Shown here one piece after another: positions 1,316 through 3,583 of a stretch of DNA of 64,000 nt. The DNA is from Naegleria gruberi (lineage: Eukaryota), in assembly GCA_000004985.1 (NCBI GenBank), contig GG738871.1; one strand, 5' to 3'. The position numbers and the translations under genes were made by a program. Every line of letters starts with the position of its first letter. The stretch's first letter is position 1. The notes under the pieces were generated by a model. That model made no database searches and was not told the DNA's origin. It saw nothing but the letters and a program-made list of their open reading frames with translations.

Positions 1316-3583
1316 TTATTCCAGAATTGAGAGTGAGATTATCATTTTAGTATTAGGATCTCTCTTCAAGTCGTACTTGTTCATTTCAATCATTCCAAGA
1401 TCGTATCCCTTCATACTACTCAAATCTTTAACAATTTGATCAGTTCCGAAATATGGATGGCTCACAACAGAATTATCAGTAAATCCATGTCCAAGAGTAA
1501 TACACTCAACTCCATTAATTGAAACAACATGTCCTTGATCAACTACCAAATTATAGACATAATCACAGGCAACATCTTGAGGTGATTTGATATCGATTGG
1601 GAATTTCCATTCACCCTTAACTCTTACAGGGTGATATGGGGTAATGTACATTCCATTCATTTCACACAATTTGACAATAGGGGAAGGAGTCTTGCTCTTC
1701 AAGACGCATAAAATAGTGGCATATGAATCACCATTCATGTTCTTAACTCTGTCTCCTTTCTTAATTTCAGAAACCTTCTTGACAGAGTTGTCATACATTG
1801 TGATTAATGAATTACCATCGAAGCAAGAACCACCTGCATTGTAGTATGAGCTCATGTTTGTTGGGGTGTTATAGCTGCCACCACCATAGGAATAGACATT
1901 TGATGGTTTTGGAGGAGGAAGTTTACAAAAGATGTCATCTGCAACAGATTGCAAAGCTTCAAACAAGCTTCCACCAAAGATTTGAACACTTGGGTCTTTG
2001 AAATTGTGGCATTGTTGCATCCAGTTAGCACGAAGGAGAGAAGGCAAATAGTGATAACCCCACTTATTCATGAACTCTTGTTTGGAGAAGGCAATAGATA
2101 CTTGACCTTCGTTTGTATTGTCACTCTTAATATCTCTAACTAGAGCACTGACACGTTCATCTGTAAAGGATGGTAATTTGGCAATAGTTTGCAAGAAGGA
2201 TTCTAATTGATGTTTGCATTCCTTACTACTGTCATCTCTGCTACTGTTACCATTTCTGTAGGTTTGAATACATTTTTCAACACATTCAATGAACATTAAT
2301 CTTGTCAAGTTGGCATCCATATCAGTAGCTTGTTCTGAGGAGAGTGATTGATTAACAGGTTCAACTTTTTCAATAGAATGGTGATTGTAAGTGAGATCAA
2401 CCTTAATGGCAGGCAAATTATTGGCATGCATATCGACATCAATAATATAATCTCTTGATTGTTGGAATTGAACTCCTCCCATTGAAATTGTGAATTGTTT
2501 TTCATTGGTACTGTTATTTCCATTTTGACTGGAACCGTAAACGTGTGAAATCTTGGCACCGTTCATTGAGGAAATGACCAACTCGGCTCTTCTAACAGCA
2601 GTACATAAAATATTACTCATCATGTTAACAAATGTTGTTCCAACCATGGAACAATCAGGAATATAAGAGTAAGCTCCACTTCCATTCATTGCAATATCTT
2701 TCAATAAGGCACTATCCAAACTGTATCCAAATCCAAAGCTGTGAATTGTGGAATTCAATGGATGTTCCTTAATGTACTTTTCAAGAGTTGGGACAATACC
2801 TCTTGGAGGATTAATGTTAGGTTCACCATCTGTGAATAGAATCAAACAAGTATTGGTCTTTGCACAGAGAGGATTATTAAGACTGGATTCCATTCCCAAT
2901 CTCAAACCATCCCATACATTGGTAGATCCTTCAGGTCCTAAATGTTCCAACTTTTCAATGGCCTTCTTCTTACCAACTGCATCCATTTTAGTGAGAGGAA
3001 GTTCCATTCTTGCAGAATCACTGAATGGAATGAGAGAAATTTGATCCTTTTCATTCATTAATTCAATAAGAGTTCTAACAGAGTGCTTGACCAAATCCAA
3101 TCTTGAAAATCCAGTATTTTCATTGGAAGAACTCAAATCTTCAGCACTAGATCCCATACTTCCACTCACATCGAGAATGCATACCAAATTACATGGTTGA
3201 CGTTGACCTCCAGTAGGTGGTGATACCTTAACATGAATTCTTCTCTTTGATTCACTCACTTGCTTTGAAACAATTGTCAAATTCAAAGAATGATCTTCAA
3301 TATCTTGCTCAACCAATGGTGTGACTCTATTCACAACAATAGGAGTATTTCCATGAACCAATTGTTCAATAGTATTTCTCAAAGCAATATTCGATACCAA
3401 CAACTCCTTGCTCATGGCTTCTCTTGTCAATGGTGAAGTAGCATGAATAGTCAACCAATGTTCAATTGCTTCTCTTTCATAGGTTTGACCATCGGTACCA
3501 ATAACAGGATCTTTCATAATTTCCTGTGTGATTGGACAATAAAATTCATTTGGATAATTTCTTTGAGTTGATGATGATGACAT
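1316..3583 (-). CDS. U-box E3 ligase domain + von Willebrand A domain + C-terminal Hint (hedgehog/intein-type autoprocessing) domain protein. 755 aa, single exon.
   Basis: The N-terminus 'FYCPITQEIMKDPVIGTDGQTYEREAIEHWL' is a U-box. 'CILDVSGSMGSS' is a vWA MIDAS DxSxS motif. The C-terminus 'CFDGNSLITMYDNSVKKVSEIKKGDRV...VVDQGHVVSINGVECITLGHGF' is a Hint module that begins with the nucleophilic Cys. The start is a genuine ATG at 3583. Confidence 0.75.
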   Translation of the reverse strand: MSSSSTQRNYPNEFYCPITQEIMKDPVIGTDGQTYEREAIEHWLTIHATSPLTREAMSKELLVSNIALRNTIEQLVHGNTPIVVNRVTPLVEQDIEDHSLNLTIVSKQVSESKRRIHVKVSPPTGGQRQPCNLVCILDVSGSMGSSAEDLSSSNENTGFSRLDLVKHSVRTLIELMNEKDQISLIPFSDSARMELPLTKMDAVGKKKAIEKLEHLGPEGSTNVWDGLRLGMESSLNNPLCAKTNTCLILFTDGEPNINPPRGIVPTLEKYIKEHPLNSTIHSFGFGYSLDSALLKDIAMNGSGAYSYIPDCSMVGTTFVNMMSNILCTAVRRAELVISSMNGAKISHVYGSSQNGNNSTNEKQFTISMGGVQFQQSRDYIIDVDMHANNLPAIKVDLTYNHHSIEKVEPVNQSLSSEQATDMDANLTRLMFIECVEKCIQTYRNGNSSRDDSSKECKHQLESFLQTIAKLPSFTDERVSALVRDIKSDNTNEGQVSIAFSKQEFMNKWGYHYLPSLLRANWMQQCHNFKDPSVQIFGGSLFEALQSVADDIFCKLPPPKPSNVYSYGGGSYNTPTNMSSYYNAGGSCFDGNSLITMYDNSVKKVSEIKKGDRVKNMNGDSYATILCVLKSKTPSPIVKLCEMNGMYITPYHPVRVKGEWKFPIDIKSPQDVACDYVYNLVVDQGHVVSINGVECITLGHGFTDNSVVSHPYFGTDQIVKDLSSMKGYDLGMIEMNKYDLKRDPNTKMIISLSILE

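Follow-up and report, generated by a model that had tools for sequence, protein, structure and literature searches.

What does the open reading frame at positions 1316..3583 encode, and does its product, in which a U-box and a VWA domain are followed by a C-terminal Hint module, process itself? The frame lies on the minus strand of the window, a 64,000-nucleotide stretch of Naegleria gruberi contig GG738871.1. It is single, intron-less and complete, starting at an ATG and encoding 755 residues followed by a stop codon. An in-frame stop occurs 21 codons upstream of the ATG, and an earlier ATG is absent. The product (83.9 kDa) is N. gruberi NAEGRDRAFT_58186 (XP_002676603.1, UniProt D2VHB8), to which it is identical at 755/755 residues, the entry having been reached through its 90% cluster. 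The gene is real and intact, and tblastn searches revealed no paralogues of this U-box-VWA-Vwaint-Vint protein within the window.

Judged from its sequence, the protein is most likely a cytosolic, self-cleaving E3 ligase that yields pieces of 65 kDa and 19 kDa. The discovery value of the locus is small: the RefSeq and UniProt entries for the protein date back to the publication of the N. gruberi genome, and the protein, its family and the U-box variant are all already known.

Domain organization

Pfam matches were judged against the gathering cut-off of each model. The four matches obtained (U-box, VWA, Vwaint and Vint) are far beyond chance (Table 1). The sequence-only reading had listed a U-box, a vWA domain and a C-terminal Hint in a Vint-like architecture. 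All of these were recovered above the gathering cut-offs, but the list made no mention of what separates VWA from Hint, namely a beta-sandwich and a helical region with the Vwaint domain.

Table 1. Features of the protein and their positions in the window
Feature	Residues	Nucleotides	Strand	Evidence or remark
U-box	11-76	3356..3553	(-)	Pfam E 2.4e-18, 66.5 bits vs 21.4; pLDDT about 90
Disordered linker, U-box to core	79-92	3308..3349	(-)	pLDDT below 50
Beta-hairpin ahead of VWA	101-121	3221..3283	(-)	model strands 101-110 and 113-121
VWA	132-307	2663..3190	(-)	Pfam E 9e-13, 49.2 bits vs 23.8
MIDAS D138-x-S140-x-S142		3158-3172	(-)	within VWA
MIDAS T221		2921-2923	(-)	within VWA
MIDAS D252		2828-2830	(-)	within VWA
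Beta-sandwich after VWA	328-407	2363..2602	(-)	predicted structure and fold comparison
Helical bundle	416-554	1922..2338	(-)	predicted structure; contains Vwaint
Vwaint	475-549	1937-2161	(-)	Pfam E 4e-22, 78.6 bits vs 23.5
Disordered Gly/Ser/Tyr-rich linker into scissile bond	564-585	1829..1894	(-)	pLDDT below 50
Predicted scissile junction Ser586/Cys587		1823..1828	(-)	Cys587 is the Hint motif-A nucleophile
Vint-type Hint	586-749	1337..1828	(-)	Pfam E 1.6e-48, 165.1 bits vs 27
Motif B T648-P-Y-H651 (TPYH)	648-651	1631-1642	(-)	within Vint
H699 and C-terminal extension (700-755)		1319..1489	(-)	H699 at 1487-1489
H709		1457-1459	(-)	within C-terminal extension

The U-box is the part of U-box ubiquitin ligases that binds the E2. 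In the N. gruberi protein it also matches the U-box structures of plant PUB, CHIP and LubX proteins, with E values down to 1.3e-13, and a weak Pfam match to zf-Nse stays under threshold. The VWA domain contains a complete MIDAS, as had been read from the sequence: D138, S140, S142, T221 and D252 are all invariant in an alignment of 24 sequences and are kept in 65-66 of 66 homologs on viral-labelled contigs. NCBIfam yielded weak matches to generic VWA families only, all far under cut-off. In the predicted structure, the hairpin that precedes the VWA domain probably packs with the beta-sandwich that follows it. Residues W508, G509 and F528 of Vwaint are invariant in the alignment, and its NFKD motif is conserved. 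The extension at the C-terminus is predicted to form a helix (715-722) and three strands.

The VWA "trunk", the beta-sandwich and the helical region together align over about 380-530 columns with the Sec23/24 core, archaeal ArnA/B, ITIH heavy chains and 4fx5 (Foldseek E 1e-21 to 1e-10, 11-15% identity); for 4fx5, ArnA/B and Sec23/24 the alignments cover about 450-530 columns. These proteins, which differ in their biology, have neither U-box nor Hint, and the likeness is one of fold and not of membership.

Family and distribution

The VWA-Vwaint-Vint family was defined by Bürglin in 2008, with N. gruberi among the species given and a Ubox upstream in four proteins (PMC2362128). The corresponding Pfam models are PF14623 (Vint) and PF14624 (Vwaint). 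In the protein analysed here, the VWA domain is N-terminal to a Hint-like domain, Vwaint lies between the two, and no signal peptide was detected. It is the N. gruberi member of this described family, in its commonest form, with the U-box at the N-terminus. Comparison with VWA-Vwaint-Vint proteins, including the Tetrahymena thermophila Vint domain (PDB 8r2c), revealed no essential difference, apart from a Ser in place of the consensus Gly at position -1. The combination of domains, previously regarded as unusual, was published in 2008 (PMC2362128) and is the majority form, the U-box being present in 60 of the 103 family members sampled (about 58%) and in 112 of the 120 best matches.

Vwaint occurs in plant RING-VWA proteins as well (PMC2362128). 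By description, the plant WAV3/WAVH/EDA40/SOR1 E3s resemble the N. gruberi protein in that an N-terminal E2-binding domain is followed by VWA, and members of the WAV3 family are intracellular RING and VWA proteins whose E3 activity was confirmed in vitro. In contrast to the N. gruberi protein, which has a U-box and a Vint domain, WAV3-type ligases carry a C3H2C3 RING-H2 domain, have no Vint and do not cleave themselves.

The phylogenetic distribution, which the sequence-only reading had proposed to examine, is broad. Clustering at 50% identity divides the family into about 4,000 groups, along with 71 loci on contigs labelled viral, and the family is very common both in protists and on giant-virus-labelled contigs. 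It is large and ancient, with strict conservation of its catalytic sites. Flanks of 5 kb at five IMG/VR loci carry metabolic genes and genes for LRR proteins, AAA proteins and peptidases; giant-virus hallmark genes were absent from them. The searchable literature contained nothing specific on giant-virus U-box/VWA/Hint proteins and no experimental work on U-box Vint proteins, the N. gruberi one included. The intact gene is apparently frequent in giant-virus MAGs, which may point to a part in conflict between host and virus.

Cellular location and the Vint catalytic site

The protein had been envisaged as a possibly secreted or lipid-modified E3/adhesion module, which would make it an extracellular protein of the Hedgehog/Hog type. 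Extracellular adhesion is a frequent role of VWA/MIDAS domains, and Hog proteins are secreted, but a simple hydropathy test revealed neither a signal peptide nor a TM segment (maximum KD19 of 1.19), and the absence of a signal peptide makes a secreted adhesion module unlikely. The N-terminus runs directly into the U-box without a hydrophobic stretch, and the alignment shows that orthologues, too, start directly with the U-box. U-box function moreover requires cytosolic E2~ubiquitin, and VWA-containing E3s of intracellular location, such as the WAV3 family, exist. Bürglin likewise found the family to be devoid of signal peptides and concluded that its members are "processed inside the cell" (PMC2362128). 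With the Hog model PF01079 also under threshold, we consider an extracellular module very improbable.

Membership of the Hog group was rejected separately: PF01079 scored 24.9 vs 29.7 bits, the match was limited to residues 583-622 (profile positions 9-48), and no signal peptide was found. Because this match covers only 40 residues and is under threshold, Hedgehog chemistry is not simply transferable. Whereas Hog proteins (PDB 1at0, PF01079) are secreted and carry a sterol-recognition region, the N. gruberi protein is apparently cytosolic, and its extension is Vint-specific and aligns only to 8r2c. Hog proteins also possess a cholesterol-activating Asp; in contrast, no Asp is invariant between motifs A and B in the alignment of 24 sequences, which suggests that Vint domains have no conserved equivalent.

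By fold comparison of the predicted structure, the C-terminal domain was shown to share its fold with the Vint domain of Tetrahymena, for which a structure was released in 2024: 165 Vint residues align to 8r2c, and only about 105-110 to other HINT structures. The cores of inteins, BIL and Hog domains contain nothing equivalent to residues 700-755. Since the position aligned with the nucleophile is occupied by Ala instead of Cys in the crystallised 8r2c chain, that chain is uninformative on activity.

The canonical nucleophilic Cys noted earlier in the motif CFDGNS is Cys587, and both this residue and the TxxH motif are present on proper alignment. Conservation was assessed in 104 representatives, about 35-45% identical overall, that were scanned with local HMMs. 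Cys587 occurs in all 104, as well as in 65 of 66 homologs on viral-labelled contigs, and His651, H699 and H709 are each invariant (104/104). T648 is found in 102/104, the remaining two having Ser. At the level of sequence, such strict conservation of Cys587, His651, H699 and H709 is typical of a catalytic site that has been retained.

The junction itself differs from the G/CFDG boundary that had been assumed. The local sequence is GGS/CFDG, and the residue preceding Cys587 is Ser586. Among the 104 representatives, position -1 is occupied by G in 54, P in 31, V in 8 and S in 5, and Gly is therefore the family consensus. The Ser found here and the Pro of 31/104 relatives, unlike the Gly of Hedgehog, argue against the cleavage proposal; we expect a Pro at -1 to slow the acyl shift. 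In the predicted structure, the Ser586/Cys587 junction is exposed and lies in a disordered linker.

These features bear on a reading in which Vint does not cleave, but is kept in an uncleaved 84-kDa E3 for structural, regulatory or sensing purposes, for instance docking or the sensing of metals or redox state. For no Vint protein does the searchable literature document a cleavage product, an adduct, a substrate or a phenotype, and in our expectation a Pro at -1 would disfavour the acyl shift; nevertheless, the four invariant residues have been kept in sequences as divergent as those sampled, and the junction is placed by the model where it would be accessible. A non-cleaving Vint domain is accordingly improbable.

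The sequence-only reading had placed the Hint at the C-terminus, as opposed to an intein lying within a host protein, and this was confirmed. Only 6 residues follow the Pfam Vint match, and the protein ends in SLSILE. The tail that follows Vint in 103 relatives has a median length of 8 residues and a maximum of 41, and Vint is C-terminal in all of the 150 best representatives. In the absence of a C-extein and of a terminal Asn followed by Cys/Ser/Thr at +1, the likelihood of an inserted intein is negligible.

Proposed self-cleavage and fate of the thioester

The mechanism proposed here draws on what is generally known of HINT-domain chemistry (inteins, Hedgehog, BIL). In the cytosol, Cys587, located at the end of the disordered linker and aided by T648 and H651, would attack the carbonyl of Ser586 in an N-to-S acyl shift, yielding a thioester. 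Resolution of the thioester by a nucleophile would release a 65-kDa fragment consisting of U-box, VWA, beta-sandwich and Vwaint (residues 1-586) and a 19-kDa Vint fragment (residues 587-755). Splicing would not occur, because the C-terminal Asn and the +1 residue are absent. The freed 65-kDa fragment may function as a single-chain E3, in which the U-box would recruit E2~ubiquitin and the substrate would be bound by VWA/MIDAS, beta-sandwich and helical core, as proposed for WAV3 ligases. By analogy with those ligases, we suggest that the VWA domain is the substrate receptor. Cleavage by Vint probably matures or regulates the ligase, and His699, His709 and the extension of ~55 residues suggest that a ligand, a metal or a specific nucleophile may control the resolution of the thioester. 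Taken as a whole, a self-cleaving cytosolic U-box E3 of the Vint family is, on sequence grounds, a likely interpretation.

Alternatively, the thioester may not be hydrolysed, but resolved by a small molecule or lipid or by a protein lysine, leaving the 65-kDa E3 tagged or anchored at Ser586. This adduct transfer is a tentative possibility, clearly less probable than release of an unmodified fragment. An adduct-recognition region and the regulation of cleavage by a ligand are reportedly discussed by the authors of 8r2c. In the N. gruberi protein, the invariant H699 and H709 and the conserved extension occur where Hog carries its sterol-recognition region. In BIL2, the thioester is passed to the amine of a Lys, so that an isopeptide bond results, and the reaction is gated by histidines that bind Zn (PMC8616854). 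However, Vint proteins are not known to carry an adduct, a conserved Asp matching the cholesterol-activating Asp of Hedgehog appears from the alignment to be absent between motifs A and B, and the Hog model matches the motif-A region only. The similarity of Vint to BIL domains, including Tetrahymena BIL2 of the BUBL locus (PDB 2lwy, 6tmm), is also confined to motif A (E 0.13). BIL2 is flanked by ubiquitin-like domains on both sides and has a C-terminal Asn, whereas Vint is terminal and has a different extension.

A more specific proposal, which we regard as somewhat more doubtful still, is that Vint is a ligand- or metal-gated transferase joining the thioester C-terminus of the E3 to a specific nucleophile, for example a lipid, metabolite or protein lysine. 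If so, the ligase would be covalently anchored or targeted, in an intracellular counterpart of Hedgehog cholesterylation or BIL2 isopeptide conjugation; if, in addition, the contig labels hold, the many giant-virus MAGs with the intact gene would redirect host ubiquitination by means of it.

If an E3 ligase processed itself, as in the preferred reading of a cytosolic self-cleaving U-box E3, this would be an unusual way to regulate such an enzyme. The orthologue in N. fowleri is 60% identical to the N. gruberi protein. N. gruberi can be cultured and its relative N. fowleri is a pathogen, which makes the protein a workable entry point.

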